From Terriglobia bacterium (GTDB taxonomy: Bacteria; Acidobacteriota; Vicinamibacteria; Vicinamibacterales; CAVVIG01), in contig JAIQFX010000027.1 in assembly GCA_020073005.1 (NCBI GenBank), positions 120-64,119 of the forward strand: 64,000 nt of DNA. The letters are read 5' to 3'. Every line of letters starts with the position of its first letter. The stretch's first letter is position 1. Below the pieces are notes generated by a model, which was not told where the DNA came from, did not search any database, and saw only the letters and a program-made list of their open reading frames with translations. The position numbers and the translations under genes are program-made. Below are positions 1,253-42,694 of the stretch, piece after piece.

Positions 1253-2632
1253 CTATCTTCCCCGGGCTCCGACCAGTGTTCTTGTCGTCCTGAGGAGTAT
1301 CGCGAGGTCGAGCAGGAACGACGCGTTCTTCACGTAGAAGAGATCGTACTCGAGCTTTTCGCGCGTCTGCTCGCGCGACGCGGCGTAGTCGTAGTGGATC
1401 TGGCCCCAGCCGGTGATGCCGGGCCGCAGGCCGTGCCGCTGGTTGTACATCGGCACGGCGGTGAGGAACTCGTTGACGAACACGCTGCGCTCGGGCCGCG
1501 GGCCGACGAGGCTCATGTCGCCCTTGATGACGTTGATCAGCTGCGGCAGCTCATCGAGCCGCCAGCGGCGCAGCCAGCGCCCGAGTCCGGTGACGCGCGG
1601 ATCGTCCTCGCTCGCCCACACCGGACCCGACGCGTCCTCCGCGCCCTCGACCATCGACCGGAACTTCACGACGTGGAACGGCCGGTTGTGCAGGCCGATC
1701 CGCTCCTGCGTGTAGAGCACCGGCCCCGTGCTCGTCATCCGGATCAACAGCGCGATGAGCAGCAGCAGTGGCGACAGGACGATCAGCAGCACGCTCGCGA
1801 GCACGAAATCGACGAGCCGCTTGAGGCTCGTCACGTACAGCGACGACCGGCCCATCAATCCCCACAGCAGCCACATCTCCGTGATCTGATCGCAGGGAAT
1901 GCGATTGAGGAAGCGCTCGCAGACGCTGGCGAGATCGACGATCTCCACGCCGCGGTTGCGCGCGGCGATGAGCGCCTGCAGGTACCGGTTCCAGCACTCC
2001 ATGCTGCTGCTGACGATGACGGTGTCGACCTTGCGGCTGGCGATCAGCTCGGCCAGATCCGATCCGTCGCCGAGCCACGGCGCGGTGTTGGGCGCGCTCA
2101 TGTCGCGGGCGGGCGCGACGTAGCCCTGAATCTGATAGACCGCGCCGGCCGCGCGCTTCAGCTCGCCGAGCAAGGCCGCGCCGACGTCGCCCGAGGTCAC
2201 GACGATCGCCTGGCGCTTGAAGAAATCGGCGCCGACGAGCGCGTAGACGAAGCGCCCGGCCATCGCGATGCCCGCGAAGATCGCGACGTTCAGGACGAAC
2301 ACGCCGCGGCCGACCGCGGGCTCGGTGCGGAAGAAGAAGATCAGCAGCTCCGCCAGCCCGGCGAGCAGGTAACACCCGGCGAGCTTGCGCAGCTCGATCC
2401 AGCTCGCGTACCGGCGGCGCGGATCGTAGGTCTCGAACAGGATGCCGGCGATGAAGAACACCGCCGCGTGGATCGCCAGCACGTTCCAATACTTAACGAG
2501 CTGGTCGTTCACCCAATACGATCCGAACCGCAGCGTGAAAGCGAGCTGCCACCCGGCCCACAACGCCACCAGATCGAGCGCGACGAGCGCGATCGTTCGC
2601 ATCGACATCTGCGTGCGAGGCGTGGGGATCAT
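1253..2632 (-). CDS. undecaprenyl-phosphate sugar phosphotransferase (initiating polyprenyl glycosylphosphotransferase, 'bacterial sugar transferase' family)
   Basis: C-terminal 'LVGPRPERSVFV', 'RPGITGWGQI' and 'KLEYDLFYVKN', with N-terminal TM helices. Start ATG 2632 forms an ATGA overlap with the upstream stop. The longer 737-aa ORF N-terminus is Arg-rich junk overlapping the neighbouring gene. Confidence 0.85.
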   Translation of the reverse strand: MIPTPRTQMSMRTIALVALDLVALWAGWQLAFTLRFGSYWVNDQLVKYWNVLAIHAAVFFIAGILFETYDPRRRYASWIELRKLAGCYLLAGLAELLIFFFRTEPAVGRGVFVLNVAIFAGIAMAGRFVYALVGADFFKRQAIVVTSGDVGAALLGELKRAAGAVYQIQGYVAPARDMSAPNTAPWLGDGSDLAELIASRKVDTVIVSSSMECWNRYLQALIAARNRGVEIVDLASVCERFLNRIPCDQITEMWLLWGLMGRSSLYVTSLKRLVDFVLASVLLIVLSPLLLLIALLIRMTSTGPVLYTQERIGLHNRPFHVVKFRSMVEGAEDASGPVWASEDDPRVTGLGRWLRRWRLDELPQLINVIKGDMSLVGPRPERSVFVNEFLTAVPMYNQRHGLRPGITGWGQIHYDYAASREQTREKLEYDLFYVKNASFLLDLAILLRTTRTLVGARGR

Positions 2633-4014
2633 AGGGCGGGTGGGGGAGCTGGGGCGGGTAAGGCAGGTGGGGAGACAGCCGCCTGCCACGCGTCCGCCGA
2701 GACGCGCGTGCCGGCCGCGATCACCATCCAGAACATGCCCATGATTTTGTACGAGACGAACGCGTCGACGAGCACGGCGCTGACCGACGTGGCCACCACG
2801 GCGAGCGCCGCTCCATACACGATAGCACGCGGCAGCGGCCCCGCACTGTGAGGAGTGCGGCGCGCGGCGCGGACGAGCATCCACAGCAGCGCCGCGAGAA
2901 GGACGATGAAGGTCACGAATCCGGCGACGCCCGTGTCCGCCAGCACGCGGACGTACCAGCCGTCGGGCGAGGCGGGCAGATCGTACTGGCGGACGTACGC
3001 GAGGTAGCCGCCGAGGCCGTCGCCGAGGAAGGGCCGCGCGAGCCAGTGATCGAACGCGAGCCGCCAGTTCTTCGCGCGCAGCGCCAGGCTCGGATCGGTC
3101 GCGATCGCCTGCCGGATGACGTCGGGATCGAGCGTCGTCGCGAGCGACACGACGCCGTGCACGAGCGTCAGCATCTTCTTCGACGTGATCACGTACGGCG
3201 CCGCGGCCGCGGCGACGCCCATCGTCAACAGCGTTCGCCACCGCGCGTGCCAGACGAGATCGATCGCGACGATCAGCACCAGCCCGAGCAGCGACGCGCG
3301 CGACTCGGAATTCGCCGTCACGATCGCGCCGGCCGCGAGCGCCAGCGTCGTCAACGGACCGCGGCTGCCGCCGGCGCTCCACAGCGCGTACATCAGGATC
3401 GTCGCGAGCATCATGTAGCCGCCGAAGTCGTACGAGGCCGAGAACGTCGGATAGAGCGTCGCCCACGGCGTGGGCGGTCCGGCGGCGGGCGCGTGCGTCC
3501 AGTGCTGCGCGAGCCAGATCGCGCAGATCAGCAGCAGTGCGGTGCGCGCGACCTCGACGAAGCGATTGAATTCGTCCGGCGCGAGCGCGCTATAGAAGAA
3601 GTAGTAGAGCAGGCCGTACTGGACGAGACGGCCCGCGTGAAACACGCCCGTCAGCGGCTCAGTCGACAGCGCGGCCACGCCGATCAACGTGCACGCGATC
3701 GCGACGCCCCAGTAGATCAATAGAAAGAATGTCGCGGGCGAGGGAGGCGCCGTGGCGTCCCCCGGATTCGTGGTGTCCGGCTTCAGCCGGATCCCGGGCC
3801 GGACCCTGAAGAACTTCCGCGCCCACCAGATCAGCACGAGCGCGAGCACGACATCGTCGACGCGGATCGGCGTCGTGTTGCCCGGCACGGCGGCGAGCGG
3901 CACCTTCGGCATCAGCGCGATGAACAGGACGAGAAACGCCCAGACGCGCGGCACGCGCCGGAGTTGGTAGGCCGAAACAACGACGCACGCGGCGATGATG
4001 ACGATGGGCGACAT
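2629..4014 (-). CDS. O-antigen ligase / Wzy-like polymerase family membrane protein
   Basis: About 10-12 hydrophobic helices in a polysaccharide locus. It carries an in-frame hairpin-repeat insertion ('RLKPDTTNPGDATAP'). Confidence 0.6.
   Translation of the reverse strand: MSPIVIIAACVVVSAYQLRRVPRVWAFLVLFIALMPKVPLAAVPGNTTPIRVDDVVLALVLIWWARKFFRVRPGIRLKPDTTNPGDATAPPSPATFFLLIYWGVAIACTLIGVAALSTEPLTGVFHAGRLVQYGLLYYFFYSALAPDEFNRFVEVARTALLLICAIWLAQHWTHAPAAGPPTPWATLYPTFSASYDFGGYMMLATILMYALWSAGGSRGPLTTLALAAGAIVTANSESRASLLGLVLIVAIDLVWHARWRTLLTMGVAAAAAPYVITSKKMLTLVHGVVSLATTLDPDVIRQAIATDPSLALRAKNWRLAFDHWLARPFLGDGLGGYLAYVRQYDLPASPDGWYVRVLADTGVAGFVTFIVLLAALLWMLVRAARRTPHSAGPLPRAIVYGAALAVVATSVSAVLVDAFVSYKIMGMFWMVIAAGTRVSADAWQAAVSPPALPAPAPPPAL
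3751..3805. repeat. CGTGG-GTCCGGCTTCAGCCGGAY hairpin unit inserted in-frame in the Wzy-like CDS
   Basis: cgtggcgtcccccggattcgtggtgtccggcttcagccggatcccgggccggacc. The same unit occurs at 29197, 30813-30873 and 56909. Confidence 0.75.
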
Positions 4015-4015: not shown

Positions 4016-4118
4016 GAAATTATGAATTGGGAATTAGGAATTAAGAATGGAATCCCTGACTGTCTTCTCGCTAATTCTGAATTCTGAATTCTTAATTCTT
4101 AATTCCTAATTCCTAATT
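4016..4118. repeat. inverted pair of TAATTCY heptamer arrays
   Basis: Left arm is gaaattatgaattgggaattaggaattaagaatggaat. Right arm is ctaattctgaattctgaattcttaattcttaattcctaattcctaatt. It spans from the Wzy-like start (4014) into the last codons and TAG (4106-4108) of the Wzz-like gene. Confidence 0.8.
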
Positions 4119-9496: not shown

Positions 9497-9607
9497 AAAT
9501 TGCGGAACGCGGAATGCGGAGCGCGGAGGTCTGGCGACGGAACAGCGCGAGCAATCGAGACGTTCGACGAGTCTCAATCCGCATTCCGCAATCCTCAATC
9601 CGCAATG
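9497..9607. repeat. inverted GCGGAAT/GCGGAGY heptamer arrays with about a 42-nt spacer
   Basis: Left arm is aaattgcggaacgcggaatgcggagcgcggagg. Right arm is tctcaatccgcattccgcaatcctcaatccgcaatg. It starts 3 nt after the synthase stop. Confidence 0.8.
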
Positions 9608-9624: not shown

Positions 9625-10962
9625 ATGAGCGTGAAGGTCAAGTCATCGACCGCGAAAGGCCAGGAGCTCTACCGCCGCGCGAAGAAGCTGATCCCGGGCG
9701 GGACGCAGCTGCTGTCGAAGCGGCCGGAAATGTTCCTGCCCGATCAGTGGCCCTCGTACTACTCGAAGGCGCGCGGCGTCGAGGTCACCGACGTCGACGG
9801 CAACACGTACGTCGACATGTCGATGATGGCGATCGGCGCGTGCGTGCTCGGCTACGCCGATCCGGACGTCGACGCGGCGGCGAAGGCGGCAATCGACGCC
9901 GGGTCCGCCACGACCCTCAACGCGCCCGAGGAAGTCGAGCTCGCCGAGCTGTTGTGCGAGCTGCATCCGTGGGCGCAGATGGTCCGCTACGCGCGCTCGG
10001 GCGGCGAGGCGATGATGATGGCCGTCCGCATCGCGCGCGCACACACGCGCAAGGACAAGATCGCGTTCTCCGGCTACCACGGCTGGTGCGATTGGTACCT
10101 GGCGGCCAACCTCTCGGATGAACGCGCGCTCGACGGCCAGCTGATGCCCGGCCTCGATCCCGCCGGCGTGCCGCGCGGCCTGAAGGGCACGGCGCTGCCG
10201 TTCCACTACAACCGGCTCGATCAGCTGAAGGCGATCGTCGACGCCACGCGCGGCGAGCTCGGCGTCATTGTCATGGAGCCGCGGCGCGGCGACGCGCCGG
10301 CGCCGGGCTTCCTCGAAGCGGTGCGCGCGATCGCGACCGACATCGGTGCCGTGCTGGTCTTCGACGAAGTGACGACCGGCTTCCGCATGACCGACGGCGG
10401 CATCCACAAGCTCCTCGGCGTCAACCCGGACATCGCCGTCTTCGCGAAGGCGATGGCCAACGGCTATCCGATGGCCGCCGTCATCGGCACGTCGACCGTG
10501 ATGGAAGCCGCGCAATCCACGTTCATCAGCAGCACCAACTGGACCGAGCGCGTTGGCACGGTCGCGGCGATCGCGACGATCCGCAAGATCCGCCGCGAGC
10601 GCGTGACGGATCACCTGATCCGCATCGGCGAGCTGACGTTCGCCGGCTGGAAGGCCGCCGCCGCGAAGGCCGGCCTCGCGCTGCACACCGAAGGCCTGCC
10701 GAGCCTGACGCACTTCGGCTTCGAGCATCCGGACGAGCCCGCGCTGACGACGCTCTTCACGCAGGACATGCTGGAGCGCGGCTATCTCGCGTACAGCCAG
10801 TTCAAGCCGTCGTTCGCGCATCAGCCGTCGCACGTCGACGCGTACATGAAGGCCGTCGCATCGTCGTTCGCGATGATCGCGGACGCGATCAAGGCGGGCG
10901 ACTATGGATCGCGATTGAAAGGGCCGTCCGCAAGGCGCGGGTTTTATCGATTGACGTCGTAA
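9625..10962 (+). CDS. class III (glutamate-1-semialdehyde aminomutase-like) PLP aminotransferase
   Basis: 'SGGEAMMMAVRIARAHT', 'VFDEVTTGFR' and 'FAKAMANGYP'. ATG 9625 was chosen because upstream ORF codons are translated repeat array. Confidence 0.8.
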   Translation: MSVKVKSSTAKGQELYRRAKKLIPGGTQLLSKRPEMFLPDQWPSYYSKARGVEVTDVDGNTYVDMSMMAIGACVLGYADPDVDAAAKAAIDAGSATTLNAPEEVELAELLCELHPWAQMVRYARSGGEAMMMAVRIARAHTRKDKIAFSGYHGWCDWYLAANLSDERALDGQLMPGLDPAGVPRGLKGTALPFHYNRLDQLKAIVDATRGELGVIVMEPRRGDAPAPGFLEAVRAIATDIGAVLVFDEVTTGFRMTDGGIHKLLGVNPDIAVFAKAMANGYPMAAVIGTSTVMEAAQSTFISSTNWTERVGTVAAIATIRKIRRERVTDHLIRIGELTFAGWKAAAAKAGLALHTEGLPSLTHFGFEHPDEPALTTLFTQDMLERGYLAYSQFKPSFAHQPSHVDAYMKAVASSFAMIADAIKAGDYGSRLKGPSARRGFYRLTS

Positions 10963-11040
10963 TGAAGAATTAAGAATGAAGAATTACGAATTATGAATTC
11001 CGAACCATTCTTAATTCCCAATTCCTAATTCTTAATTTCA
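10961..11040. repeat. inverted pair of TAATTCY heptamer arrays
   Basis: aatgaagaattaagaatgaagaattacgaattatgaattc / attcttaattcccaattcctaattcttaatttcac. It includes the TAA stop 10960-10962. Confidence 0.8.
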
Positions 11041-13372: not shown

Positions 13373-15244
13373 TCAACGAGTCTCGGCGACCAGCGCGGCG
13401 ACGCGGTCGGTCGCGTGGCCGTCCAGCTCGGACACGTACGCGCGCAGCTCGGCGCTGCGCGCAAGCGCCCCGCGATCCAGCCCGGCCGCGCCGGCGCGCC
13501 GCGCGGTGAGCTGTTGCCCGAGTTCCTCGATCGAGTACGCGATCGCGATCCCCGGCACGCGATCGAGCGGCAGCAGCTTCCGGCGGAAGACGGCATCGAA
13601 GACGATCGCCGGTGTGCCGAGCGCGATCGACTCGAGCACGGTCGTCGAGTACGCGGCGACGAGCACGTGCGACTTCTCGAGGATGTCGTACAGAATCGGC
13701 TCGCGGATCGTCGTCAACGTCAGCGGATCCCACCCCAGCGCCCGCGCGGCCTCCGCGTAGTACTCCGCTTCCTCGCCCGGATGCATCTTGTGAATGACGC
13801 GGACGTCGGTCTGCGTCCGGGCCCACGCGAGGACCGCGTCGATCATCAGCAGGTTCTCGTACTCGGACGCGCCCATCGAGTAGTCCGTCATGAAGCCGGA
13901 GCAGATCGTAACGGTGAATGTGGCTGGTGCCTGGTGACTGGTGGCTGGTGACTGACTCCCGACTCCCGACTCCCGACTCCCGACTCGCGCGGCGAGCGCG
14001 TCAAAGCGCGGGTTACCCGTTACAACAAAGCTCGCTGTCTGCGCGCCTTGCGCGCGATACCACGTCTCGGTCCAGTCCCCCCACGTGGCGAGCCGGTCCA
14101 CGTGCGCGACGGAATGCCCGTTCGGCTCGCCCGTGATGCCGTGCTGGATTCCCGTCGACGCCACGCCGAAGCGGCGCGCCGTGTCGATGAGCACGCGGTT
14201 GTACGCCGTCACGTCGCTCGACGTGAGCACTCGCCCGCCGGCGCACGCGTCGGTGAGCGACTGCAGGTGACGCAGCGCCGGGACCCACGCCGCGATGTGC
14301 AGCCACACCGTGCGGCCGACGAGCGGCCAGTACGGCACGCCGGCCACGGTGAACTGGCCGGCGTGCGCGCGATCGCCGCTCAACGAGAGCGCCTGCGCCA
14401 CGGCGTCGGCGAGCGCGCCCAGCCAGCGGATCGGATCGACGAGATCGGTGAACGCTTCCAGTGGGATGAGGTCGCGCGGTTGAAACAGCGCGCGCCCGGG
14501 CTGCGTCGCCCCCGCGATCACGATGGGACGCGCGGCGCCCTGAAGCCGCTCGACGACATCCGCGGTGAAGCGATCGCCGACGACGATCAGCGCGCGAGCG
14601 CCTGGCGACGGCATCGCACCGCGCGCGATCCGGCGCCACAGGCCCGTGAAGAACGTCAACCAGATGAAGCCCGGCTCGAGCACGAGCGCGCGAAATTCCG
14701 TGTTGACCCACTTCGTCGCGCGGCCGGCCCGAAGGCGCGCGAACGCCTGCGCCGCGCGCTGAAGGACGTCACCGCCGACGATCTCGGTCGTCAACCCGCG
14801 ACGGCTCGCCACGAGGCGCGCGGCGTCCACGAGCGGCCCGCCGCCGACGAGCACGAGGCGGCCCGGCGCGGATCGCGTCAGCTCGTCGTCGATCGCGGTG
14901 ACGTTGCGCACGGCGCGGCTGAACGACGGGATGAGCGTGTACTGCAGGTATGGGCCGAAGTTCGTGCCCATGGCTTCGGCGTGCTTGCCCGCGGCGCGCG
15001 TGACGCCGTCGAGCATCGCGCGATCGCGCTCGACGATGAGATCCGGCGTGAGGCCGTCGGTCGTCAGGCGCGCGTCGATTCCTTCGCGGCGCAGCCGCAT
15101 CGCGAGCAGCGCGTCGCCGGTCAGGACGGCGGCCGACGCGCCCCGCAGCCGCGCCGGCGCCAGCGCTTCCCGCAGCGCGCGTTCCGCGTGACGGTCCTCG
15201 ACGATCAGCAGCTGGTCCGTGATACGGCGAGCGTACCACGACAT
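13373..15244 (-). CDS. hypothetical two-domain protein, C-terminal half GT-B/Rossmann-like (candidate glycosyl- or nonulosonate-transferase)
   Basis: 623-aa ORF with normal composition in a sugar locus. The C-terminal 'VLVAAYSTTVLESIALGTPAIVF' resembles the GT-B donor-binding helix. No family was recognised with certainty. Confidence 0.45.
   Translation of the reverse strand: MSWYARRITDQLLIVEDRHAERALREALAPARLRGASAAVLTGDALLAMRLRREGIDARLTTDGLTPDLIVERDRAMLDGVTRAAGKHAEAMGTNFGPYLQYTLIPSFSRAVRNVTAIDDELTRSAPGRLVLVGGGPLVDAARLVASRRGLTTEIVGGDVLQRAAQAFARLRAGRATKWVNTEFRALVLEPGFIWLTFFTGLWRRIARGAMPSPGARALIVVGDRFTADVVERLQGAARPIVIAGATQPGRALFQPRDLIPLEAFTDLVDPIRWLGALADAVAQALSLSGDRAHAGQFTVAGVPYWPLVGRTVWLHIAAWVPALRHLQSLTDACAGGRVLTSSDVTAYNRVLIDTARRFGVASTGIQHGITGEPNGHSVAHVDRLATWGDWTETWYRAQGAQTASFVVTGNPRFDALAARVGSRESGVGSQSPATSHQAPATFTVTICSGFMTDYSMGASEYENLLMIDAVLAWARTQTDVRVIHKMHPGEEAEYYAEAARALGWDPLTLTTIREPILYDILEKSHVLVAAYSTTVLESIALGTPAIVFDAVFRRKLLPLDRVPGIAIAYSIEELGQQLTARRAGAAGLDRGALARSAELRAYVSELDGHATDRVAALVAETR
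13920..13986. repeat. GGTGRCT and GACTCCC heptamer arrays, in-frame inside the 623-aa CDS
   Basis: gtggctggtgcctggtgactggtggctggtgactgactcccgactcccgactcccgactcccgactc. On the minus strand it is translated as 'SRESGVGSQSPATSHQAPAT'. Confidence 0.8.
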
Positions 15245-18573: not shown

Positions 18574-19814
18574 TCACCGCGAAGGACGCGCTCGCCGCCG
18601 ATCTCGCGAAACTGACACCGGCCTCGCTCAAGACGGCGCCGCTCGCCGAGCTGACGGCGATCGCGCAGAAGATCCGCCAGCTCCTCATCGGCACCCGGCC
18701 GCAGGCGGATCGCGCGCTGGCGGCGAATCTCTCGAACGTCGAGCTGACGCTCGCGCTCCACCGCGCCTTCGACTGGCCGGACGATCGCATCGTCTGGGAC
18801 GGCGGCCATCAGATGGACACGCACCGGATCGTGACCGGACGCGTGGATCGCTTCGCGACGCCGGCGTTCGAGGCGTCGGGCCGCGCCGTGATGAAGACGG
18901 AAGGCGGCCCGGAGGTGATCGAGGCCGCGCGCGGCGGCACGTCGATCTCGATCGCGCTCGGGATCGCGCTCGGCCGCGCGCTCAAGGGCGACACGCGGCC
19001 GGTCGTGTGCGTCATTGGCGACGGCGCGCTCGCGCAGGGCGTCGCGCTCGAGGCACTCAATCACGCGGCGAGCGTGCCGCACGTGAATCTGATCGTCGTG
19101 CTGAACGACAACAGCGATTCGACCGGCGGCGGGGCGTTGCACGCGTACTTGCGCTCGCTCGCGGTCGGGCGGCGCGATCCCGAGGCGTTGTTTACGTCGC
19201 TCGGGTTCGATTACATCGGGCCTGTCGACGGTCACAGCGTCGAAGCTCTCTCGCAGGCGCTCGATCGCGCCAGGGTCTCGACGCAGATCCCGATCGTCCA
19301 CGTCAAGACGCAGCGAGGGTACGGCAGCAAGCCGCAGCCGGTCCGGCGCGACACGAATCGCTTCGCGGACGCGGCCGCGGCGATCGTCGCCGACGAGATG
19401 GCGCGCGACGAGCGTCTGGTCGTCGTCGTGCCGGCGCCCGCCGAAGAGCTCGGATTCGCCGCGCTGCTCGCGAAGCTGCCGGATCGCGTCTTCGCGCCGC
19501 GGCTCGACGAGCCGCATTCCTTCGCCGCGACGGTCGGGCTCGTGTCCGAGCGCTACAAACCGGTGGTCGTCGCGGACAGCGCGTTTCTCGAGCGCGCCTT
19601 CGATCACGTCGCGCGCGATCTCTGCGCGGGCAACGTGCCGGTCGTCGTGCTGGCGATCGGACGGCTGACGGAGCCGAAGGCCTGGCAGGGCCTGCCGCAC
19701 GTGCGCGTGCTCATGCCCGCGACGAAGGCCGAGCTCGACAAGACGCTGCGCGAGGCGCTGCGCGAAGTGCCGGGGCCGACGCTCTTCGTCCTGTCCGCCG
19801 GGCCGGCCGCGTGA
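18570..19814 (+). CDS. truncated 1-deoxy-D-xylulose-5-phosphate synthase-like thiamine-diphosphate enzyme (PP + Pyr domains, no C-terminal domain)
   Basis: 'NLSNVELTLALHRAFDWPDDRIVWDGGHQMDTHRIVTGR', 'GGTSISIALG', 'VIGDGALAQGVALEALNHA' and 'VLNDN'. Only about 414 aa. ATGA overlap with the upstream gene. Confidence 0.7.
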   Translation: MITAKDALAADLAKLTPASLKTAPLAELTAIAQKIRQLLIGTRPQADRALAANLSNVELTLALHRAFDWPDDRIVWDGGHQMDTHRIVTGRVDRFATPAFEASGRAVMKTEGGPEVIEAARGGTSISIALGIALGRALKGDTRPVVCVIGDGALAQGVALEALNHAASVPHVNLIVVLNDNSDSTGGGALHAYLRSLAVGRRDPEALFTSLGFDYIGPVDGHSVEALSQALDRARVSTQIPIVHVKTQRGYGSKPQPVRRDTNRFADAAAAIVADEMARDERLVVVVPAPAEELGFAALLAKLPDRVFAPRLDEPHSFAATVGLVSERYKPVVVADSAFLERAFDHVARDLCAGNVPVVVLAIGRLTEPKAWQGLPHVRVLMPATKAELDKTLREALREVPGPTLFVLSAGPAA

Positions 19815-19816
19815 AC

Positions 19817-21796
19817 ATGCTCCAGCTGTTCTCGATTTTTCATCTGAACCTCGCGTACTCCTCGATCGAAGAGGCCCAGCGGCCCGACGTCGTCCACCGG
19901 TGCTACTGGCCGCTCGTGCGCCTGATCGAGCGGACGGGGGCGCCGATTGGCATCGAGGCCAGCGGCTTCACGCTCGAAACCGCGGCGGCGATTGATCCCG
20001 CGTGGCTGCGCGCGCTGCGCGACCTCGTGTCGGCGGGCCGGTGCGAGTTCGTCGCGAGCGGCTACGCGCAGATCATCGGTCCGCTGGTGCCCGCGGCGGT
20101 CAACGCCGCCAACCTCCGTCTCGGACACGAGGTCTATCAACGGCTCCTCGGCGTCCGGCCGCGCCTCGCGTTCGTCAACGAGCAGGCGTACTCGGCCGGC
20201 CTCATCCAGCACTATCTCGACGCGCGCAGTGACGCGATCGTCATGGAGTGGGACAACCCAGCGCGGGCGCACGCCGAGTGGAACCCCGGCTGCCGCTACT
20301 TCCCACAGATGGCGGCCGGACAACACGGCGAAACCATTCCGCTCATCTGGAACACGGCGATCGCGTTCCAGCAGTTCCAGCGCTACGCGCACGACGAAGC
20401 GTCGCTCGACGAGTACCTGTCGTACCTGGGAGACAAGGCCGTCGCCACGCCGCGCGTGCTGGCGATGTACGGCAACGACGCCGAGATCTTCGACTTCCGG
20501 CCCGGCCGCTATCACACCGAAGCGCCGGTCGCGGCGGCAGGCGAGTGGAATCGCATCAACACGTTGTTCGATGCGCTGCAGGCGGACCCGCGCTTCGCGT
20601 TGATTCCGCCCTCCGGCGCGCTTGCGCTCATGGATCAGCCGGACGCGGGACAACGGCTGCACCTTGAATCTGCGTCCGACCCGGCGCCCGTCAAGAAACA
20701 ACGGAAGTACAACATCACGCGATGGGCGGTCACCGGGCGCGACTCGCTCGCGATCAACACCGCGTGCTGGCGGCGATACGCCGCGCTCACGAAAGATCCC
20801 GGCGCGACCGACGCGGCGTGGCGGGAGCTCTGCGAGTTGTGGTCCAGCGATTACCGGACGCACATCACCGATGCGCGATGGGCCGCGTATCGGAAGCGGC
20901 TCGATGGTGTAGCGCGAGCCGCGGTTGTAGCGCGAGGCTTTCAGCCGAGCGTCGCCGGCTCGCCTGAAAGGCTCGCCCTGCAATCCATCGCATCGGGCGA
21001 TCCCGGCGTCACGCGCGACGGCGCGTTCCTCACGCTGAAGCACGGCGCGGTCACGCTCGTCCTCAACTGCCGCCGCGGTCTCGCGATTCACGCGTTGTCG
21101 TTCGAAGGACGCGGCGATCATCCGCTCTGCGGCACGCTGCCGCACGGGTTCTACGACGACATCCACTGGGGCGCCGACTTTTACTCGGGAATGACGGTGA
21201 TGGAGTCGCCGGGGCGGCCGAAGATCACCGATCTGAACCGCGTGGAGCCGGTCGTCGGGCGCGACGATCAGGGCGCGCTCGTCGTCGAGGGCGCGATCGC
21301 GACCGACCTCGGCCCCGTCGTCAAGCGCGCGCGCGTCACGCCGTCCGCGGTGGACCTCGAGTACCGGCTGGAGTGGCCCGAGCGGCCGGTCGGCTCGCTG
21401 CGGCTGGGCGACGTCACGCTCCATCCGTCCGCGTTCGATCGCTCGACGCTTTTCTACCGCAGCCACAACGGCGGCGCGCGGCCCGAGACGTTTCCGCTGG
21501 ACGGCACGCGCGTGAGCCACGGCGACGCGGTGTCGTTCCTCGTGTCCGCGAGTCACGCGGTGGGCATCACCGAAGGCGTCGTGGAACTCGGCGATCGCGC
21601 GACCACGCTGCGCATCGAGGTCGACAAGACGCTCGCGGCCGTGGTGGGAATGGTGACGTACCAGCCGGTCGGCGACCGCTACTTCTGCCGCATCAGCTTT
21701 TCTGCAGGCGAAGTCGACGACACGCGCAAGCCCGCAGCCGCGACCGGCGCCGAGCCGCTCGTCTGCCGGTTTCGAATCACCGCGCAGCGCGCGTAA
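19817..21796 (+). CDS. glycoside hydrolase family 57-like protein
   Basis: The N-terminal 'FSIFHLNLAYSSIEE ... IEASGFTLE' resembles the GH57 catalytic-barrel start. GTG 19811 (GTGA overlap) is an alternative start. The upstream part of ORF 19007.. is out-of-frame overlap. Confidence 0.5.
   Translation: MLQLFSIFHLNLAYSSIEEAQRPDVVHRCYWPLVRLIERTGAPIGIEASGFTLETAAAIDPAWLRALRDLVSAGRCEFVASGYAQIIGPLVPAAVNAANLRLGHEVYQRLLGVRPRLAFVNEQAYSAGLIQHYLDARSDAIVMEWDNPARAHAEWNPGCRYFPQMAAGQHGETIPLIWNTAIAFQQFQRYAHDEASLDEYLSYLGDKAVATPRVLAMYGNDAEIFDFRPGRYHTEAPVAAAGEWNRINTLFDALQADPRFALIPPSGALALMDQPDAGQRLHLESASDPAPVKKQRKYNITRWAVTGRDSLAINTACWRRYAALTKDPGATDAAWRELCELWSSDYRTHITDARWAAYRKRLDGVARAAVVARGFQPSVAGSPERLALQSIASGDPGVTRDGAFLTLKHGAVTLVLNCRRGLAIHALSFEGRGDHPLCGTLPHGFYDDIHWGADFYSGMTVMESPGRPKITDLNRVEPVVGRDDQGALVVEGAIATDLGPVVKRARVTPSAVDLEYRLEWPERPVGSLRLGDVTLHPSAFDRSTLFYRSHNGGARPETFPLDGTRVSHGDAVSFLVSASHAVGITEGVVELGDRATTLRIEVDKTLAAVVGMVTYQPVGDRYFCRISFSAGEVDDTRKPAAATGAEPLVCRFRITAQRA
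20908..20977. repeat. TGTAGCGCGAGSC / GGCTCGCCTGAAAGGCTCGCC hairpin repeats in-frame inside the GH57-like CDS
   Basis: tgtagcgcgagccgcggttgtagcgcgaggctttcagccgagcgtcgccggctcgcctgaaaggctcgcc, translated 'VARAAVVARGFQPSVAGSPERLA'. A related unit lies at 41784-41807. Confidence 0.7.
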
Positions 21797-25204: not shown

Positions 25205-25298
25205 CTGCAGCTTTCAGCTGTCAGCACTCGGCTTTCAGCGCTCACTTCTTCCTTCTTCCTTCTTAATTCCTAATTCTTAATTCTTAATTCTCAATTCC
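25205..25298. repeat. concatenated arrays: CAGCTTTCAGCTG-type units, CTTCCTT heptamers and TAATTCY heptamers
   Basis: ctgcagctttcagctgtcagcactcggctttcagcgctcac; then ttcttccttcttccttctt; then aattcctaattcttaattcttaattctcaattcc. It abuts the thiS stop codon (TAG, 25298-25300). Confidence 0.8.
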
Positions 25299-25629: not shown

Positions 25630-28600
25630 ATGCCGTCGCGTCCGACCGCTGATACCACGCCCGAGACCGCACTGGGCGTGCCGGGTTACACGTTCGCCGA
25701 TCTGCACGATCCGCCGAGGCTGGCGTCGCTCTACGAGCGCTTCTGCGAGGAAGTGGCCGCGGCCGATCCGGTTGTCTGGCGCGAGTGGGACGCGTATCGC
25801 CAGGCGCCGGATGCGCCGCGCGCGCCGCTCGCGGTGTCGAATCTGCTCACGAGCATGGCGCCGCACGTCAGCCGCTTCCTCACGCGCCTGTTTCAGGTGG
25901 AGCCGGACGCGCGCGCGATCGGCGACGCCACCCGCGCGCAGGACGATCTGTTCCGCTTCAAGGTGGACTTCGTGCGCCGCCGCGCGCTGCCGCTCGTCAA
26001 ACTAGACAAAGCAGGCGGCGCGCCCCTCACGGCAACGCCCGAAGACGATGCGATCGTCGACCAGCTGATCGCGCGATCGGCCGGCGTCGACCGCGAGCTC
26101 GCCGTCGCACGAGCAGGATGCGCGCTCCTCGATCAAGAGCGCGCCGAAGCCACCAGCCACCAGCCACCAGCCACCAGTCGCCAGGTCGATGCGCTCAAGC
26201 GCTGGTGCGCGTCGCGTCTGCACGACCGCGCGTACCGCGACTGGGTGATCTTCCGTTTTCCCGAGACGCTCGACTACTGGAAGCTCGTCGAGGTCCGGCG
26301 TCCCGAGCCGCGGCGGCCCGAGTCGATGCTCGGGCCTGATTGGCGGCGCCGCCGCCGCGATGGTTTCCTGCTCACGGACGCGCGCATGAATGCGCGCGAG
26401 ACGATGAGCGAGATCCATTACTGCGTGCTGTGCCACGAGCGCGACAAGGACTCGTGCTCGAAAGGCCTCTTCGAAAAAGATCTCACAGTTGTCGTCAACC
26501 CGCTCGGCATTCCGCTCGACGGCTGTCCCCTCGACGAGAAGATCTCCGAGATGCACACCTTGCGCAAGGCCGGCGACGCCGTCGGCGCGCTCGCGCTCGT
26601 CGTCGTCGACAACCCGATGTGTCCCGGCACCGGCCATCGCATCTGCAACGACTGCATGAAGTCGTGCATCTACCAGAAGCAGGAGCCGGTCAACATTCCG
26701 CAGATCGAAACGGGCGTGCTGACCGACGTCCTGCGGCTGCCGTGGGGCGTGGAGATCTTCGGTCTGCTCACGCGGTGGAATCCGCTCAACGTCCGCCGGC
26801 CGTACGCGCTGCCGTACAACGGCAAGAACGTCCTCGTCGTCGGCCTCGGCCCCGCGGGTTACACGCTCGCGCACTATCTGGTGAACGAAGGCTTCGGCGT
26901 CGTCGGCGTCGATGGACTCAAGATCGAGCCGCTGCCGCGCGACATCGTCGGCACCGACACCGTCGCGCCGCGGCCGATTCGCGACTGGGACGAAATCTAT
27001 CGCCGCCTCGACGAGCGCGTGCTCGAGGGATTCGGCGGCGTGTCCGAGTACGGGATCACCGTGCGATGGGACAAGAACTTCCTGACGCTGCTGCACCTGA
27101 CGCTCGCGCGGCGGCGCGGCCTGCGGATGTACGGCGGCGTCCGCTTCGGCGGCACGCTGCCCATCGAGGACGCGTGGACGTACGGCTTCGATCACGTGGC
27201 GATTGCCGCGGGCGCCGGACGGCCGACCGTCATCGACATGAAGAACAACCTGATCCGCGGGATCAGGAAGGCGAGCGATTTCCTGATGGCGCTGCAGCTG
27301 ACGGGCGCCTTCAAGCGCGACGCGCTTCCCAATCTGCAGGCGCGCCTGCCGGCGGTCGTCATCGGCGGCGGCCTCACGGCGATCGACACGGCGACCGAGC
27401 TGATGGCGTACTACCCGCTGCAGGCGGAGAAGACGCTGCGGCGGTACGAGACGCTCGTCGCCGAGATTGGCGAAGCGCGCGTGCGCGGCGCGTACGACGC
27501 CGAAGAGCTCGAGATTCTCGACGAGTCGCTCGCACACGGACGCGAGGTGCGCGCCGAGCGCGCGCGCGCCGCGACCGCCGGCGAGTCACCCGACTTCGTG
27601 CCGCTCGTGCGATCGTGGGGCGGCGTCACGATCGCGTACCGCAAGCGCATGGTCGATTCGCCGGCGTACCGGCTGAATCACGAGGAAGTGATCAAGGCGC
27701 TCGAAGAAGGCATCGTGTTCGCGGAGCTGCTGAATCCCGTTGAAGCAGTTTCGGACGCGCGGGGCGCGCTGAAAGAAGTGATCTTCAGGCGGGAAGGGCG
27801 GGAGAGGCAGGAAGGGCAGGAAGGGAACGTGACGCTCCCTGCGCGGACGCTGCTCGTGGCGGCGGGGACGACGCCCAACATCACGTGCGAGAAGGAAGCG
27901 CCGGGCCACTTCCAGCTCGACGCGAAGAAGAAATTCTTCCAGCCGCACGGCGTCACCGCGAACGGCGACGGCCGTTTCCATCTGACGCCCGATCCGAACG
28001 GCTTCTTCACGTCGTACGACGCCGACGGCCGGTTCGTCACGTACTACGGCGACAACCATCCGCGCTACGCCGGAAACGTCGTCAAGGCGATGGCCTCGGC
28101 CAAGCACGGCTTCCCGCAGGTGACGCGGCTGTTCGCGCGCGACCTCGCGTCGCTCGACGCGGGGAAGCAGGCCGATCGCGATCGCGCCTGGACGGCGCTC
28201 GTGCAGCGGCTCGACACCGATCTGCTCGCGCGCGTCGAGGACGTCGTGCGGCTGACGCCGACGATCGTCGAAGTCATCGTGAAGGCGCCGGCGGCCGCGC
28301 GCCATTTCCATCCGGGTCAGTTCTACCGGCTGCAGAACTTCGAATCGGTCGCGCGCCGCGTCGGCCCGACGCCGCTGCTGATGGAAGGCATCGCGCTCAC
28401 CGGCGCGTGGGTGGACAAGGAGCGCGGGCTGCTGTCGCTCATCGCGCTCGAGCTCGGCGTGTCGAGCCGGCTCGTCGCGTACCTGCAGAAGGGCGAGCCG
28501 GTCGTCGTCATGGGACCGACGGGCGCGCCGACGGACATCCCCGAGTGCCAGAACGTGCTGCTGCTCGGCGGCGGCCTCGGCAACGCCGTGCTCTTCTCGA

Positions 28601-29196
28601 TCGCGAAAGCGATGCGCGACCGCGGCAACAAGGTGATTTACTTCGCCGGCTACAAAAAGGGCGAAGACCTGTTCAAGCGCGAGGACATCGAGGCGGCGAC
28701 CGATCAGGTCATCTGGAGCACGGACACCGGCGCCGCGATCCCGCCCGGGCGTCCGCAGGACGCGCATTTCCGCGGCAACATCGTCCAGGCGATGATCGCG
28801 TATCAGAAGGGTGAGCTCGGCGATCGGCTCGTGCCGCTCGATTCCGTCGATCGGATCATCGCAATCGGATCAGATCGGATGATGGCGGCGGTCAAGGCGG
28901 CGCGCTACGGCGCGCTGGCGCCGTTCCTGAAGAAAGGTCACGTCGGCATCGCGAGCATCAACTCGCCGATGCAGTGCATGATGAAGGAAGTCTGCGCGCA
29001 GTGCCTGCAGAAGCACGTCGACCCCGCGACGGGGAAGGAAACGATCATCTTCTCGTGCTTCAACCAGGATCAGGAGATGGACCGCGTCGACTTCCCGAAC
29101 CTCGCGGCGCGGCTGCGGCAGAACACGGTGCAGGAGAAACTGTCGAATCTGTGGCTCGATCACTTGCTGCGTGGAGCGGCGCTGCCGCACATTTAG
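25630..29196 (+). CDS. large multidomain Fe-S flavoprotein oxidoreductase (GltD/DPD-like FAD-NAD(P) module fused to PyrK-like ferredoxin-reductase module)
   Basis: Cys clusters 'CVLCHERDKDSC' and 'CPGTGHRICNDCMKSC', dinucleotide fold 'VLVVGLGPAGYTLA', PyrK-like 'FHPGQFYRL' and 'LLGGGLGNA', and C-terminal 'CMMKEVCAQC'. 1188 aa. Confidence 0.7.
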   Translation: MPSRPTADTTPETALGVPGYTFADLHDPPRLASLYERFCEEVAAADPVVWREWDAYRQAPDAPRAPLAVSNLLTSMAPHVSRFLTRLFQVEPDARAIGDATRAQDDLFRFKVDFVRRRALPLVKLDKAGGAPLTATPEDDAIVDQLIARSAGVDRELAVARAGCALLDQERAEATSHQPPATSRQVDALKRWCASRLHDRAYRDWVIFRFPETLDYWKLVEVRRPEPRRPESMLGPDWRRRRRDGFLLTDARMNARETMSEIHYCVLCHERDKDSCSKGLFEKDLTVVVNPLGIPLDGCPLDEKISEMHTLRKAGDAVGALALVVVDNPMCPGTGHRICNDCMKSCIYQKQEPVNIPQIETGVLTDVLRLPWGVEIFGLLTRWNPLNVRRPYALPYNGKNVLVVGLGPAGYTLAHYLVNEGFGVVGVDGLKIEPLPRDIVGTDTVAPRPIRDWDEIYRRLDERVLEGFGGVSEYGITVRWDKNFLTLLHLTLARRRGLRMYGGVRFGGTLPIEDAWTYGFDHVAIAAGAGRPTVIDMKNNLIRGIRKASDFLMALQLTGAFKRDALPNLQARLPAVVIGGGLTAIDTATELMAYYPLQAEKTLRRYETLVAEIGEARVRGAYDAEELEILDESLAHGREVRAERARAATAGESPDFVPLVRSWGGVTIAYRKRMVDSPAYRLNHEEVIKALEEGIVFAELLNPVEAVSDARGALKEVIFRREGRERQEGQEGNVTLPARTLLVAAGTTPNITCEKEAPGHFQLDAKKKFFQPHGVTANGDGRFHLTPDPNGFFTSYDADGRFVTYYGDNHPRYAGNVVKAMASAKHGFPQVTRLFARDLASLDAGKQADRDRAWTALVQRLDTDLLARVEDVVRLTPTIVEVIVKAPAAARHFHPGQFYRLQNFESVARRVGPTPLLMEGIALTGAWVDKERGLLSLIALELGVSSRLVAYLQKGEPVVVMGPTGAPTDIPECQNVLLLGGGLGNAVLFSIAKAMRDRGNKVIYFAGYKKGEDLFKREDIEAATDQVIWSTDTGAAIPPGRPQDAHFRGNIVQAMIAYQKGELGDRLVPLDSVDRIIAIGSDRMMAAVKAARYGALAPFLKKGHVGIASINSPMQCMMKEVCAQCLQKHVDPATGKETIIFSCFNQDQEMDRVDFPNLAARLRQNTVQEKLSNLWLDHLLRGAALPHI
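26150..26184. repeat. CCAGCCA heptamer array in-frame in the oxidoreductase CDS
   Basis: ccaccagccaccagccaccagccaccagtcgccag, translated 'ATSHQPPATSRQ'. Confidence 0.8.
27788..27825. repeat. GGAAGGGC-type array in-frame in the oxidoreductase CDS
   Basis: ggcgggaagggcgggagaggcaggaagggcaggaaggg, translated 'REGRERQEGQEG'. Confidence 0.75.
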
Positions 29197-29216
29197 GGTC
29201 CGGCTTCAGCCGGACC
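29197..29216. terminator. GGTCCGGCTTCAGCCGGACC hairpin exactly filling the gap between two convergent stop codons
   Basis: 8-bp GC stem with a 4-nt loop between TAG 29194-29196 and TAA (minus strand) 29217-29219. There is no U-tract. Confidence 0.4.
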
Positions 29217-29438
29217 TTACGCGACGATCCAGCCGTCGCCGCGCAGCGTGTTCATGATCTTCACGGAGCGCTCGATGAGCTCGGTCGGCTCGTCGACTTC
29301 TTCCACTGATTCGGTCCCGTCGGGGTGGGTGATGACGACGCGGTAGCGGCCATCCGCGCGGTCGCGGGTGATCTCGTAGCGGAGCTTCTCGCCGTTGCGG
29401 TCGAAAAACCAGATCATTCGAACTTCAAGAATATTCAA
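29217..29438 (-). CDS. hypothetical small protein
   Basis: 73-aa ORF with ordinary composition ('MIWFFDRNGEKLRYEITRD...'). The internal ATG (MIWFF) may be the real start. Confidence 0.45.
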   Translation of the reverse strand: MNILEVRMIWFFDRNGEKLRYEITRDRADGRYRVVITHPDGTESVEEVDEPTELIERSVKIMNTLRGDGWIVA

Positions 29439-29492
29439 CCGCGGGAGCCCGGCGCAATTGGAAGTTTGCGTTCCGGTTGGTCGGTCGAGTCA

Positions 29493-31655
<2,163 letters not shown>

Positions 31656-31656
31656 G

Positions 31657-32628
31657 TCAGCGCAGGCTCGCCGCAAAGACGGCGGCGCCGAGCAGCCCGG
31701 CATTGTCGTTCAGGATCACGTGCACGGGCATCGAGGCGAGCAGATTCTCGAGCGGCGGTTTCGCGCGGAACGCGCGCATGAACGCGCCGGACGTCAGCGC
31801 CGGAAGGATCTTCGGCGCGATTCCGCCGCCGATGAAGACGCCGCCGGTCGCGACGCTGCGCAGCGCGAGATTGCCGGCCTGCGCGCCGTACGCCTCGACG
31901 AACAGATCGAGCGCCTCGACGCATCCAGGACAGCGTCGATCGAACGCCGCGGCCGTGATGGCCGCCGCCGCGTGCGGATCCTCGAGGTCGACGGCGGCCG
32001 CGCACCCGCCGGCGTGCGTCACGCGATGAACGTTGATCAGGCCGCGTCCCGAGACGACGTGTTCGACGTCGGCGCGGCCGTACCGCTTCGTCAGGTCGCG
32101 GACGACCGCGATTTCCCGCTCGGTGCGCGCGGCAAAGTCCGCGTGGCCGCCCTCGGACGCCGCCGGCACGTAGCGGCCGTCTACGTGGTGGATCAGTGCT
32201 TCGCCGAGACCGGTGCCGGCCGCGATGACCGCCATGTTGCCGCCGGGGACGGGCGACCCGCGCTGCAGGACGTGCAGCTCCGATTCCTGCAGCGCGGGCA
32301 CGGCCTGCGCCATCGCCTGCAGATCGTTGATCACGACGACGCGCGCGGCGCCGGTCGCGCGACTGATGCGCGCGCCGTCCACGCGCCACGGCACGGCGGT
32401 CAGTTCGGCGGCGTTGTCGATCACCGGTCCCGCGGCGCCGATGCACGTCACGCCGATCGTCGACGCGTCGACGGAGGCGCCGGACAGAAACGCCGCGATC
32501 ATCGCCTCGAGCGTCTCGTAGTCGAGCGTCCCGAACGATCGCGCGACGATCGGGCGCGGACGTACCGGATCCGCCTCGAAGAGTCCGAGCAGCGTCTTCG
32601 TTCCGCCGACGTCACCTGCGAGAATCAT
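31657..32628 (-). CDS. glk: glucokinase
   Basis: 'ILAGDVGGTKT' ATP-binding motif and Glk-family length (323 aa). Confidence 0.8.
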   Translation of the reverse strand: MILAGDVGGTKTLLGLFEADPVRPRPIVARSFGTLDYETLEAMIAAFLSGASVDASTIGVTCIGAAGPVIDNAAELTAVPWRVDGARISRATGAARVVVINDLQAMAQAVPALQESELHVLQRGSPVPGGNMAVIAAGTGLGEALIHHVDGRYVPAASEGGHADFAARTEREIAVVRDLTKRYGRADVEHVVSGRGLINVHRVTHAGGCAAAVDLEDPHAAAAITAAAFDRRCPGCVEALDLFVEAYGAQAGNLALRSVATGGVFIGGGIAPKILPALTSGAFMRAFRAKPPLENLLASMPVHVILNDNAGLLGAAVFAASLR

Positions 32629-32690
32629 TTCGTGGCCTTCTGCCTTCTTCCTTCTTCCTTCTTGACTTCGCTCTCATTCTCCATCATCTT
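32629..32690. repeat. CTTCCTT / GAAGGAA heptamer array in a divergent intergenic region
   Basis: ttcgtggccttctgccttcttccttcttccttcttgacttcgc. On the minus strand it gives GAAGGAA repeats (SD-like) directly upstream of the glk ATG. Confidence 0.75.
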
Positions 32691-33883: not shown

Positions 33884-34174
33884 TTAGTACCGGTAATCGT
33901 CGGGACTGCGCTTCTTCGGCGTGCGCCGGAGCTTGTAGAACGTGCAGTCGGGACACCAGGCTTCAGGGTTGAAGTTGATACCCGCGATCGGCAGGACGTC
34001 GCGGTGGCCGCAGCATTCCGGACCGTCTTCGGGCGGCCGCCGCCAGCGGCACGACTTGAAGCGCGCCACCGCCGGCGACATCTCGACATTCGGCGTCGCG
34101 GCCGGGGCGCCAGGCGCCGCGGGCGCGCCGGGCGGCGGATTCGACGTGCCGAACGGATCCGACATCGAACTCAT
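33884..34174 (-). CDS. hypothetical Cys-rich small protein
   Basis: 96 aa with 'CRWRRPPEDGPECCGH...WCPDCTFY'. ATGA overlap with the helicase stop. Confidence 0.5.
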   Translation of the reverse strand: MSSMSDPFGTSNPPPGAPAAPGAPAATPNVEMSPAVARFKSCRWRRPPEDGPECCGHRDVLPIAGINFNPEAWCPDCTFYKLRRTPKKRSPDDYRY

Positions 34175-39636: not shown

Positions 39637-39675
39637 AAACCGAAAAGTGAAAACTGAAAAGTGAAGGAGGAAGTG
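39634..39675. repeat. GAAAAST heptamer array
   Basis: tgaaaaccgaaaagtgaaaactgaaaagtgaaggaggaagtg. It begins with TGA 39634-39636 and ends as the SD of the next ORF. Confidence 0.75.
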
Positions 39676-41783: not shown

Positions 41784-41807
41784 GGCGCGAGCCTTTCAGG
41801 CGAGCGG
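41784..41807. repeat. GGCGAGCCTTTCAGGCGAGC unit
   Basis: ggcgcgagcctttcaggcgagcgg overlaps the SDR stop. The reverse-complement copy is at 20957-20977. Confidence 0.55.
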
Positions 41808-42623: not shown

Positions 42624-42694
42624 GGGTGGCTGGTGACTGGTGGCTGGTGACTGACGAGAAACGCTCAACGACCAATGACCAACGACTGACGACC
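42624..42694. repeat. two different heptamer arrays (GGTGRCT x4 and CAAYGAC x4) in a divergent intergenic region
   Basis: gggtggctggtgactggtggctggtgactgac and ctcaacgaccaatgaccaacgactgacgacc. They are not complementary to each other. Confidence 0.8.

Follow-up and report, generated by a model that had tools for sequence, protein, structure and literature searches.

Why should one short, G+C-rich hairpin be found both inside protein-coding genes, in frame, and in the narrow gaps between genes? This question is raised by a stretch of 64,000 nucleotides (nt) from a Terriglobia bacterium of the order Vicinamibacterales, Acidobacteriota (assembly GCA_020073005.1, contig JAIQFX010000027.1, positions 120 to 64,119), here called the window, in which all positions below are counted unless a locus is named. 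Members of the Vicinamibacterales are abundant in soil, but few have been cultured, and they are known mostly from metagenome-assembled genomes (MAGs). An earlier note, made from the letters of the window, had described near-identical hairpins in a Wzy-like gene, in a prolyl oligopeptidase (POP) gene and against stop codons, and had compared them to the Rickettsia palindromic elements (RPEs). The hairpin is very probably a repetitive extragenic palindrome (REP) of the GTAG type, that is, a non-autonomous mobile element copied by a REP-associated tyrosine transposase (RAYT) and tolerated in the loops of host proteins.

A short hairpin repeat inside and between genes

With up to three mismatches allowed, the hairpin GTCCGGCTTCAGCCGGAC occurs at six sites (3775-3792, 29198-29215, 30814-30831, 30855-30872, 56872-56889, and 56916-56933), compared to 0.21 expected by chance. 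The expectation was obtained from 100 dinucleotide-preserving shuffles, none of which reached the observed number of matches. This control matters because the window is uniformly rich in G+C (66-71% throughout), and the repeat passes it. The unit consists of a 6-nt tag, CGTGG(C/T/G), which is present on the 5′ side of five of the six sites, a 7-base-pair stem (GTCCGGC/GCCGGAC), and a 4-nt loop, TTCA; it is 24 nt long, and an inverted pair occupies about 60 nt. Two doublets are found with their tags facing inward, at 30814-30872 (11-nt spacer) and 56872-56933 (14-nt spacer). Three of the six copies are intragenic, and such segments are carried by approximately four of the ~52 genes of the window.

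The solitary hairpin at 29198-29215 (+ strand), which has an exact core and no CGTGG tag, fills the gap between two convergent stop codons, as the earlier note had claimed for 29197-29216. The stop TAG at 29194-29196 ends the forward-strand gene 25630-29196 (1188 amino acids), and TTA at 29217-29219 is the stop of the reverse-strand gene 29217-29438. The latter, a small gene of 73 amino acids, is real; it is conserved downstream of POP in ~25 related loci, with 71-95% identity. RNA from this site is predicted to fold at -19.9 kcal/mol for the forward strand (z = -5.9) and at -16.7 kcal/mol for the reverse strand (z = -4.2). L001, L002, and L121 share this copy; in L132 and L136 the two genes converge likewise, but the hairpin is lacking (L-numbers denote fetched loci, in which genes were called by our own codon-usage scorer trained on the long open reading frames (ORFs) of the window).

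The intergenic doublet is composed of a reverse unit at 56872-56895 and a forward unit at 56910-56933, the latter having the tag CGTGGC and an exact hairpin. The reverse unit belongs to a subfamily variant (GTCCGCC...GGCGGAC, tag CGTGGG) with a compensatory stem change: at 56872-56889, a G-to-C change in one arm is matched by a C-to-G change in the other. Its hairpin begins 4 nt past the TGA (56865-56867) of a 2,4-diaminopentanoate-dehydrogenase-like gene, and the compensated stem variant recurs in 14 copies elsewhere and also in L120. The pair 56872-56933 folds at -36.9 kcal/mol (z = -4.5). The earlier statement that the repeat at 56909-56934 abuts a stop holds only in part; the hairpin 56916-56933 indeed ends 1 nt ahead of the stop of ORF 56935-57300 on the reverse strand, but this ORF is putative, with a coding score of -2.8 and no Pfam match.

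In-frame copies in two host genes

The first intragenic copy lies in an intact reverse-strand gene (2629-4014) for a Wzy_C/O-antigen-ligase-like membrane protein of 461 amino acids (Pfam PF04932, 47.4 bits). The insert at 3751-3805 (+ strand) is composite. One nearly complete unit, with the tag CGTGGT at 3769-3774 and a hairpin with one mismatch at 3775-3792, is accompanied on both sides by partial remnants, CGTGGCGTCC at 3752-3761 and CCCGGGCCGGAC at 3793-3804. The insert reads RPGIRLKPDTTNPGDAT on the strand of the gene, and the translation of the ORF around it contains RPGIRLKPDTTNPGD. Distant Wzy-like orthologues show W-FRR-RDVP-PSPATFF (core FRR-RDVP-PSP) where the window protein has FRVRPGIRLKPDTTNPGDATAPPSP, and closer orthologues carry one (L119), two (L120), or five (P0154) units at this site, L118 being a deletion derivative. 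In the AlphaFold2 model of the protein, which has a mean predicted local distance difference test (pLDDT) score of 87.2, the insert is in a loop (residues 71-94) between two helices (52-70 and 95-114), and pLDDT falls below 50 at residues 73-80. The possibility that 3745-3812 forms one folded structure was rejected (z = -0.19), which makes the Wzy copy a composite that has degraded, as opposed to a clean REPIN, the inverted-pair form of a REP.

Two further copies are found in the POP gene (29493-31703, reverse strand), which encodes an intact S9A protein of 736 amino acids with the Pfam domains PF02897 (Peptidase_S9_N) and PF00326 (Peptidase_S9). The reverse unit (30814-30837) consists of a hairpin at 30814-30831 with the loop variant TTTA and the tag CGTGGC at 30832-30837, and gives the peptide VASGFSRT; the forward unit (30849-30872) consists of the tag CGTGGT at 30849-30854 and an exact hairpin at 30855-30872, and gives VRLKPDTT. 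Together they constitute a REPIN-like inverted pair, predicted to fold into one long hairpin of -56.1 kcal/mol (z = -8.1). The protein aligns over its full length with PDB 1yr2 (E = 2.6e-154), which shows an 11-residue gap at the insert; another solved structure, 2bkl, shows a 14-residue gap, and ~55 orthologues at ~50% identity are consistently 12-14 residues shorter at this loop. Residues 281-299, the insert, join two propeller strands (272-280 and 300-303) in the AlphaFold model, whose pLDDT averages 80.7 and drops below 50 at residues 284-292.

The coding signal is strongest in one and the same frame on both flanks of each intragenic copy. Collectively, these data support the conclusion that the Wzy and POP copies are in-frame insertions in flexible loops of intact host genes. 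The earlier note had placed one unit in the Wzy-like gene (3751-3805) and two in POP (30813-30873), with the reading frames left open, and this is borne out: both host ORFs are of full length, and the inserts fall in low-confidence loops of the models, as it had expected. It had also raised two possibilities against itself, namely that distant orthologues would carry homologous residues at these sites or that the host ORFs would be split. Neither was found, since the residues are lacking in the ~55 POP orthologues, both solved structures, and the distant Wzy-like proteins, and the coding frame continues across each insert, POP matching solved structures from end to end.

The POP site could be followed through the best 120 homologues (P0001-P0120), which are 61-81% identical and 556-809 amino acids long. 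Extra residues are absent at the site in P0041, P0043, P0081, and P0088, and the other states range from one unit or a pair to five units (L138) and about ten VRLKPDTT-like units (P0107). A pair is located at the same codon in the window, in L001/L121, and in L004/L122; its REP units differ by 0-4 nt, and the spacers are unrelated among the three (GGCCCCACTGA, TACGGGGGTGG, and a 35-nt stretch). The element is missing in L003 and L129, and the exact 10-nt half-hairpin GTCCGGCTGA retained in L003 reads as a probable deletion scar. Other palindromes are nested within the REP hairpin loop in L128, L131, and L132. A recognisable motif is present in 29 of the 121 orthologues, and at least 21 state changes, compared to 26 for a shuffled trait, are required on a tree built from p-distances by the unweighted pair group method with arithmetic mean, indicating that the site turns over very fast. 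The Wzy and POP insertions are thus not fresh but old and common to related lineages, with a quick turnover.

Nucleotide changes within the unit are unevenly distributed. Nine POP orthologues (65-83% identical) keep the first unit and show no variation at the third bases of its stem codons (R, K, P, and D), whereas conserved R/K/P/D codons in the rest of the gene differ in 27-48% of pairs (joint chance ~0.001). In the same nine, variation is free at the loop third position, in the tag codons, and in the spacer. This invariance could be due either to a constraint on the stem or to repeated re-copying from the family consensus.

Only one of the six frames of the unit contains a stop codon. Strict scoring gave 33 intragenic copies, spread over 23 genes; in these, the frame VRLKPDTT is used 13 times, VxSGFSRT 8 times (plus one loop variant), RGVRLQPD 6 times, GPAEAGHH 5 times, and WCPASAG never. 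The first two frames exceed their 2/5 share (p = 0.005), an excess that is weaker when orthologous POP copies are counted once. With regard to the strand and frame distribution, which the earlier note had proposed to test, there is therefore a mild bias to two frames, with no single obligatory frame. Unit orientation relative to the upstream gene is unbiased (70 same and 82 opposite). A HMMER search with the 30-residue insert peptide against 1.84 billion representative proteins gave two significant matches, P0352 and P0353, the query being too short to address prevalence. P0352, a kinase-like fragment of 104 amino acids from a metagenome, has four VRLKPDTT units and one VVSGFSRT unit in an apparent inter-lobe loop and is a further host protein type for the same REP.

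Several other repeats were noticed in POP. Nested peptides, PPSPPGGFG and PPFDDAQGGPEALEG, part VRL from KPDTT at the insert site (L128, L131, L132, L136, and L167). At a second loop (residues ~113-125), the gene contains 4.6 copies of CACCAGC (31331-31362; 7-nt period); this is a place where 17 orthologues have other repeat-like inserts and where gaps are seen in PDB 1yr2. The orthologues show further hot spots of this kind at query residues ~125, 340, 479, 495, and 688, with repeat-like peptides such as RPEGLHYE, LRRASPELADH, and VSRSAKAS that resemble translations of other palindrome families.

A transposase bracketed by the same units

A search for HUH/Y1 transposases, made by a motif scan of six-frame ORFs and then by phmmer with the RAYT of L033, covered the window and 1.36 Mb of fetched DNA, in which two candidates were found (L033 and L093). 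L033 is MELA01000123 from Acidobacteria bacterium RIFCSPLOWO2_12_FULL_65_11. Its gene at 2284-2787 encodes a protein of 167 amino acids that matches Pfam Y1_Tnp as well as NCBIfam NF047646, 'REP-associated tyrosine transposase', where its score of 90.5 bits exceeds the curated cut-off of 80; the best PDB match is E. coli TnpA-REP (4er8). Two forward units are located upstream of the gene and three reverse units downstream, all tagged with CGTAGT and all within 140 nt of the gene ends, and the TGA stop of the gene is the loop of the first downstream REP. This arrangement is the REPtron layout. A RAYT gene flanked by inverted REP copies defines the REP-RAYT systems (PMC3733652, PMC6006769), and the hairpin of the window was assigned to a GTAG-type REP family because the L033 RAYT is bracketed by the same units in this layout. 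The known traits of GTAG REPs are stems of 5-13 base pairs, loops of 2-20 nt, clusters, head-to-head or tail-to-tail dimers, intragenic units, and association with a transposase (PMC3733652). We infer that this RAYT moves the units and that the genome of the window encodes one of its own. The other candidate, at 3631-4107 of L093, resembles RAYT genes as well (Y1_Tnp, 34.6 bits); the repeat on its flanks is a different one, with the translation RRPGPFGPG, and this is probably the REPtron of another family.

The family was also traced across related genomes. When the exact 24-mer CGTGGYGTCCGGCTTCAGCCGGAC was scanned against one genome per GTDB species, at least 113 stretches matched, nearly all of which, among the matches listed, are in MAGs of Vicinamibacterales, Vicinamibacteria, or Acidobacteriota; homologues of the Wzy-like protein and of a GH57-family protein of the window bear the same taxon label. 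The 24-mer was also seen in MAGs labelled Thermoleophilia (three copies on one 2.39-Mb contig) and Bifidobacteriaceae (L032, L071, L045, and L062), which could be either mislabelled or mis-binned contigs or a sign of a wider host range.

A census of 966 kb of fetched DNA, in loci chosen for containing the repeat, gave 263 copies with no more than two core mismatches. Our gene caller matched nearly all existing gene calls for L001. Intergenic copies account for 202 of the 263, though 81% of the DNA is coding, and the intragenic share is 12-23%. REPs are present in 33 of 98 convergent gaps (34%), 66 of 471 tandem gaps (14%), and 8 of 95 divergent gaps (8%). The proximity to stop codons is close, as 13 copies begin 0-1 nt past a stop and seven called genes end at the loop TGA, in the frame ...S-G-stop (L033 2785-2787, which is the RAYT gene itself; L033 2907-2909; L048; L078; L083; L091; and L092).

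The tags in the census are CGTGGC (121), CGTGGT (45), CGTAGT (23), and minor variants, equivalent to GT(A/G)G plus one base, although the sample was drawn with the CGTGGY pattern and the CGTGGY counts are inflated. In loci not chosen by tag, C-GTGG-Y is found in 18 of 32 copies. The C-GTAG-T tag is found in the five REPtron copies and ~35 others. The tag position and three of the four bases fit GTAG, but the third base is mostly G. All 22 double changes at paired stem positions, of six kinds, keep Watson-Crick pairing. With regard to arrangement, singletons number 110 and direct neighbour pairs 61; among the inverted pairs, the tags point inward in 25 and outward in 10.

A likely course of events can be proposed for such a REP. 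In the unit, a G+C-rich stem of 7 base pairs with a 4-nt loop stands behind a GT(A/G)G tag and a single spacer base. A single-copy RAYT, which as an HUH/Y1 nuclease would recognise tag and hairpin together, would most likely copy it from single-stranded DNA. The units are found singly, in direct arrays, or as inverted pairs similar to REPINs and bacterial interspersed mosaic elements (BIMEs). Most copies would land or survive just downstream of genes, chiefly between convergent genes, where they would press on stop codons or supply them. When a copy enters a tolerant loop and adds a multiple of three bases, the protein would still work and the copy could persist, because five of the six unit frames are free of stops; the resulting peptides are VRLKPDTT and V(A/V)SGFSRT, with RGVRLQPD and GPAEAGHH as the less frequent ones. 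The occupied loop would then become a fast-changing spot through unit duplication, nested palindrome insertion, and deletion.

Some observations weigh against a RAYT-mobilised REP. Neither the motif expression nor phmmer detects a RAYT gene in the 64-kb window, and the link to a transposase comes from one REPtron in a related but different MAG, where the copies are tagged with GTAG, whereas the dispersed copies mostly have GTGG. No fresh insertion was caught, which would have appeared as a site that is empty in one genome and filled in a near-identical one. Direct pairs outnumber inverted ones (61 versus 35), indicating that the family is no pure REPIN population. Finally, the proportions in the census are rough, as they depend on a simple gene caller of our own and on loci selected for the repeat.

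Three other explanations have been considered for the same data. The hairpins could be kept as functional RNA or DNA structures that act in termination, protection of mRNA 3′ ends, slowing of ribosomes, or marking of processing sites, with mobility secondary or extinct. This would agree with the stable hairpins standing directly against stop codons and their enrichment between convergent genes, with the invariant R/K/P/D third positions in nine POP orthologues (joint chance ~0.001), and with the compensatory nature of 22 of 22 double stem changes; a role as 3′-end hairpins or intragenic structures is a possible explanation of the stem conservation. However, no T-run follows any copy, terminator-like sites are absent from 29000-31000 and 56500-57400, and terminator and promoter scans around the intergenic copies found nothing. 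Moreover, Rfam at the gathering threshold gives no match over the whole window, the orientation relative to the upstream gene is unbiased (70/82), and copies have been lost or have decayed, with no harm visible, in sister lineages. The stem could also be conserved through repeated re-copying of the family consensus, and the REP-flanked RAYT favours mobility. Structural function is therefore rather unlikely as the primary account; it can stand beside the REP explanation, co-option of REPs being frequent, but is no substitute for it.

The units could alternatively be palindromes similar to RPEs or to MITEs (miniature transposable elements with inverted repeats), with no dedicated transposase, spread by recombination, slippage, or a borrowed insertion-sequence transposase, in which case the L033 layout would be coincidental. 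REPs tagged with CGTC, including RPE-4 and RPE-6 of Rickettsia, are indeed known without an associated transposase (PMC3733652), most dispersed copies carry GTGG instead of the canonical GTAG, and the direct arrays at 10-25 nt spacing fit local duplication. Nevertheless, this is very unlikely in view of the L033 gene, which scores above the curated equivalog cut-off and has five units within 140 nt of its ends in a diagnostic layout, and of the L093 RAYT with a different repeat, which fits the pattern of one RAYT per REP family. The 24-nt unit is also far smaller than RPE-1 or a MITE and has no terminal inverted repeats of its own. The third explanation, that KPDTT and SGFSRT are native conserved parts of the proteins and resemble the intergenic hairpins by chance at 68% G+C, can draw on the V-R-L codons at the left edge of the POP insert, which overlap a native β strand, HVVxL, in element-free orthologues. 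It is made extremely improbable by the 18-24 nt of DNA identity among intragenic, intergenic, and RAYT-flanking copies (0.21 expected), by the absence of the segments from distant orthologues and solved structures, and by the reading of the same DNA in four frames in different genes. A resemblance at the protein level only, with unrelated DNA, is excluded. The GTAG-type REP therefore remains the preferred reading.

Other palindromes and relation to known systems

A second REP family, GCGAGSCTTTCAGSCGAGC, has three sites in the window, compared to 0.06 expected: 20932-20950 (+), 20958-20976 (-), and 41787-41805 (+). Its units are preceded by GTAG or GTGG, and the stem has a tandem G-A mismatch. 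The first two units and a partial tagged copy (20909-20920) form a segment at 20909-20977 (+ strand) that is in frame in a GH57-family gene (19811-21796), reads VARAAVVARGFQPSVAGSPERLALQ, and folds at -44.8 kcal/mol (z = -3.7). The third unit, exact and with a GTGG tag upstream, lies in a 19-nt gap between two reverse-strand genes. No copy of GCGAGSCTTTCAGSCGAGC beyond these three was found in all fetched loci. The earlier note had grouped four sites as CTTTCAG-loop units; 20908-20977 and 41784-41807 belong to this second family, 56872-56889 is a member of the main family, and 25205-25245 was rejected as a family member (fold z = -0.55 versus shuffles, no pattern match). The clean indels that it had predicted from orthologue alignments are seen for POP and the Wzy-like protein but not for the GH57 copy, which was rejected as an indel because a variable linker of similar length, with no change of length at the site, is present in homologues from all phyla.

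Further repeats of different sequence are scattered over the window. A third palindrome family, with the core GGGGACGGGTCTC, is represented at 35060-35146 by 37-nt arms (89% complementary) around a 13-nt spacer. It is in frame in a DEAD-box helicase gene (34171-35250, reverse strand), where it contributes ~29 residues between motifs I and Ia; at this spot, the helicase orthologues in L003 and L004 show an unrelated segment, equal in length, between near-identical flanks. A second copy with perfect 17-nt arms is located upstream at 35377-35423. An intergenic palindrome at 61399-61508 has 46-nt arms (87% complementary), an 18-nt spacer, and TTGGGTAA-like 8-nt repeats, to which an array at 43831-43867 is related. 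Short arrays of tandem 7-nt units (AATTCTT-like, GTGACTG, GACTCCC, among others) occur at many gene boundaries in sequence that is otherwise 68% G+C (4018-4118, 9575-9606, 10961-11037, 13920-13986, 25245-25297, 32636-32663, 39631-39665, 42625-42653, and 48229-48261). In L123, L127, L135, L142, and L167, the small gene that lies downstream of POP is followed by simple repeats of a similar kind, and 4.3 copies of AGCCACC (26148-26177; 7-nt period) lie inside the 1188-residue Pyr_redox_2 gene.

The presence of such REPs has practical consequences. Spurious short ORFs over REP arrays, inflated protein lengths, and odd 'low-complexity' loops can enter annotations, REP-encoded peptides affect protein family alignments, and assembly and binning of MAGs are affected by the recurrence of one 24-mer on different contigs. 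Reduced intracellular genomes are not the only ones to contain in-frame palindromic DNA. POP, with solved structures and natural variants having from 0 to at least 10 units, provides a tractable system for asking how proteins tolerate repeat-encoded loops and what a hairpin of -56 kcal/mol does in an mRNA. A further idea, which we consider unlikely and offer tentatively, is that the in-gene stems are actively maintained, by selection on structure or by RAYT re-copying, and that the arrays generate loop variation in POP, the Wzy-like protein, the DEAD-box helicase, and the kinase-like fragment. If this were true, protein loops of free-living soil bacteria, and not only those of degenerate endosymbionts, would regularly evolve by way of mobile palindromes.

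Among known systems, Rho-independent terminators share with the repeat a G+C-rich hairpin right after stop codons, sometimes common to convergent genes; unlike them, it has no U-tract on either strand and occurs with the same sequence inside genes and arrays. RPE-1, which Ogata and colleagues reportedly described in 2000, is said to be a palindromic element of ~100-150 base pairs inserted in frame in genes of the obligate intracellular Rickettsia, and to our knowledge it has no transposase. Both are selfish palindromic DNA in coding genes, tolerated in loops. However, the present unit is only 24 nt long (~60 nt for a pair) and has a RAYT associated with it, and its hosts are free-living bacteria of soil and groundwater whose genomes are large. 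The comparison with Rickettsia made in the earlier note is thus apt for the in-frame behaviour, for which RPE-1 is only an analogue, the closest kind being the GTAG-type REP/REPIN with its RAYT.

The closest relatives in kind are the REPs and BIMEs of E. coli and the REPINs of Pseudomonas (Nunvar 2010; PMC3116915; Ton-Hoang 2012; PMC3733652), which have the same short G+C-rich hairpin after a GT(A/G)G tag. The family also agrees with REP/REPIN-RAYT systems in its dispersed singletons, clusters, and inverted dimers, its preference for gaps downstream of genes or between convergent ones, the gene bracketed by inverted copies in L033, and the coexistence of several families in one genome. It differs from the E. 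coli and Pseudomonas REPs in its host (Vicinamibacterales, Acidobacteriota), its mostly GTGG tag, its commoner direct arrays, and its large intragenic share. In-frame REPs are already known in Opitutus terrae, Thauera sp., and Rickettsia conorii, where dimers encode 20-30 residues and clusters more, and such inserts are presumed to be neutral because they lie in flexible loops (PMC3733652). The present copies likewise occur as units, dimers, and clusters in frame in known genes, and they differ from the REPs of Di Nocera 2013 (PMC3733652) in repeat sequence, host genes, and lineage. Beyond that study, the loop location has been checked on models, one site has been followed through ~120 orthologues, and synonymous conservation of the stem has been found. 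Within the library of papers that was searched, none was found that gives the SGFSRT and KPDTT peptides or the unit sequence. The family is accordingly new in sequence and host lineage, in-frame REPs having been described before in other phyla (PMC3733652), and is notable mainly for its unusually high number of intragenic copies.

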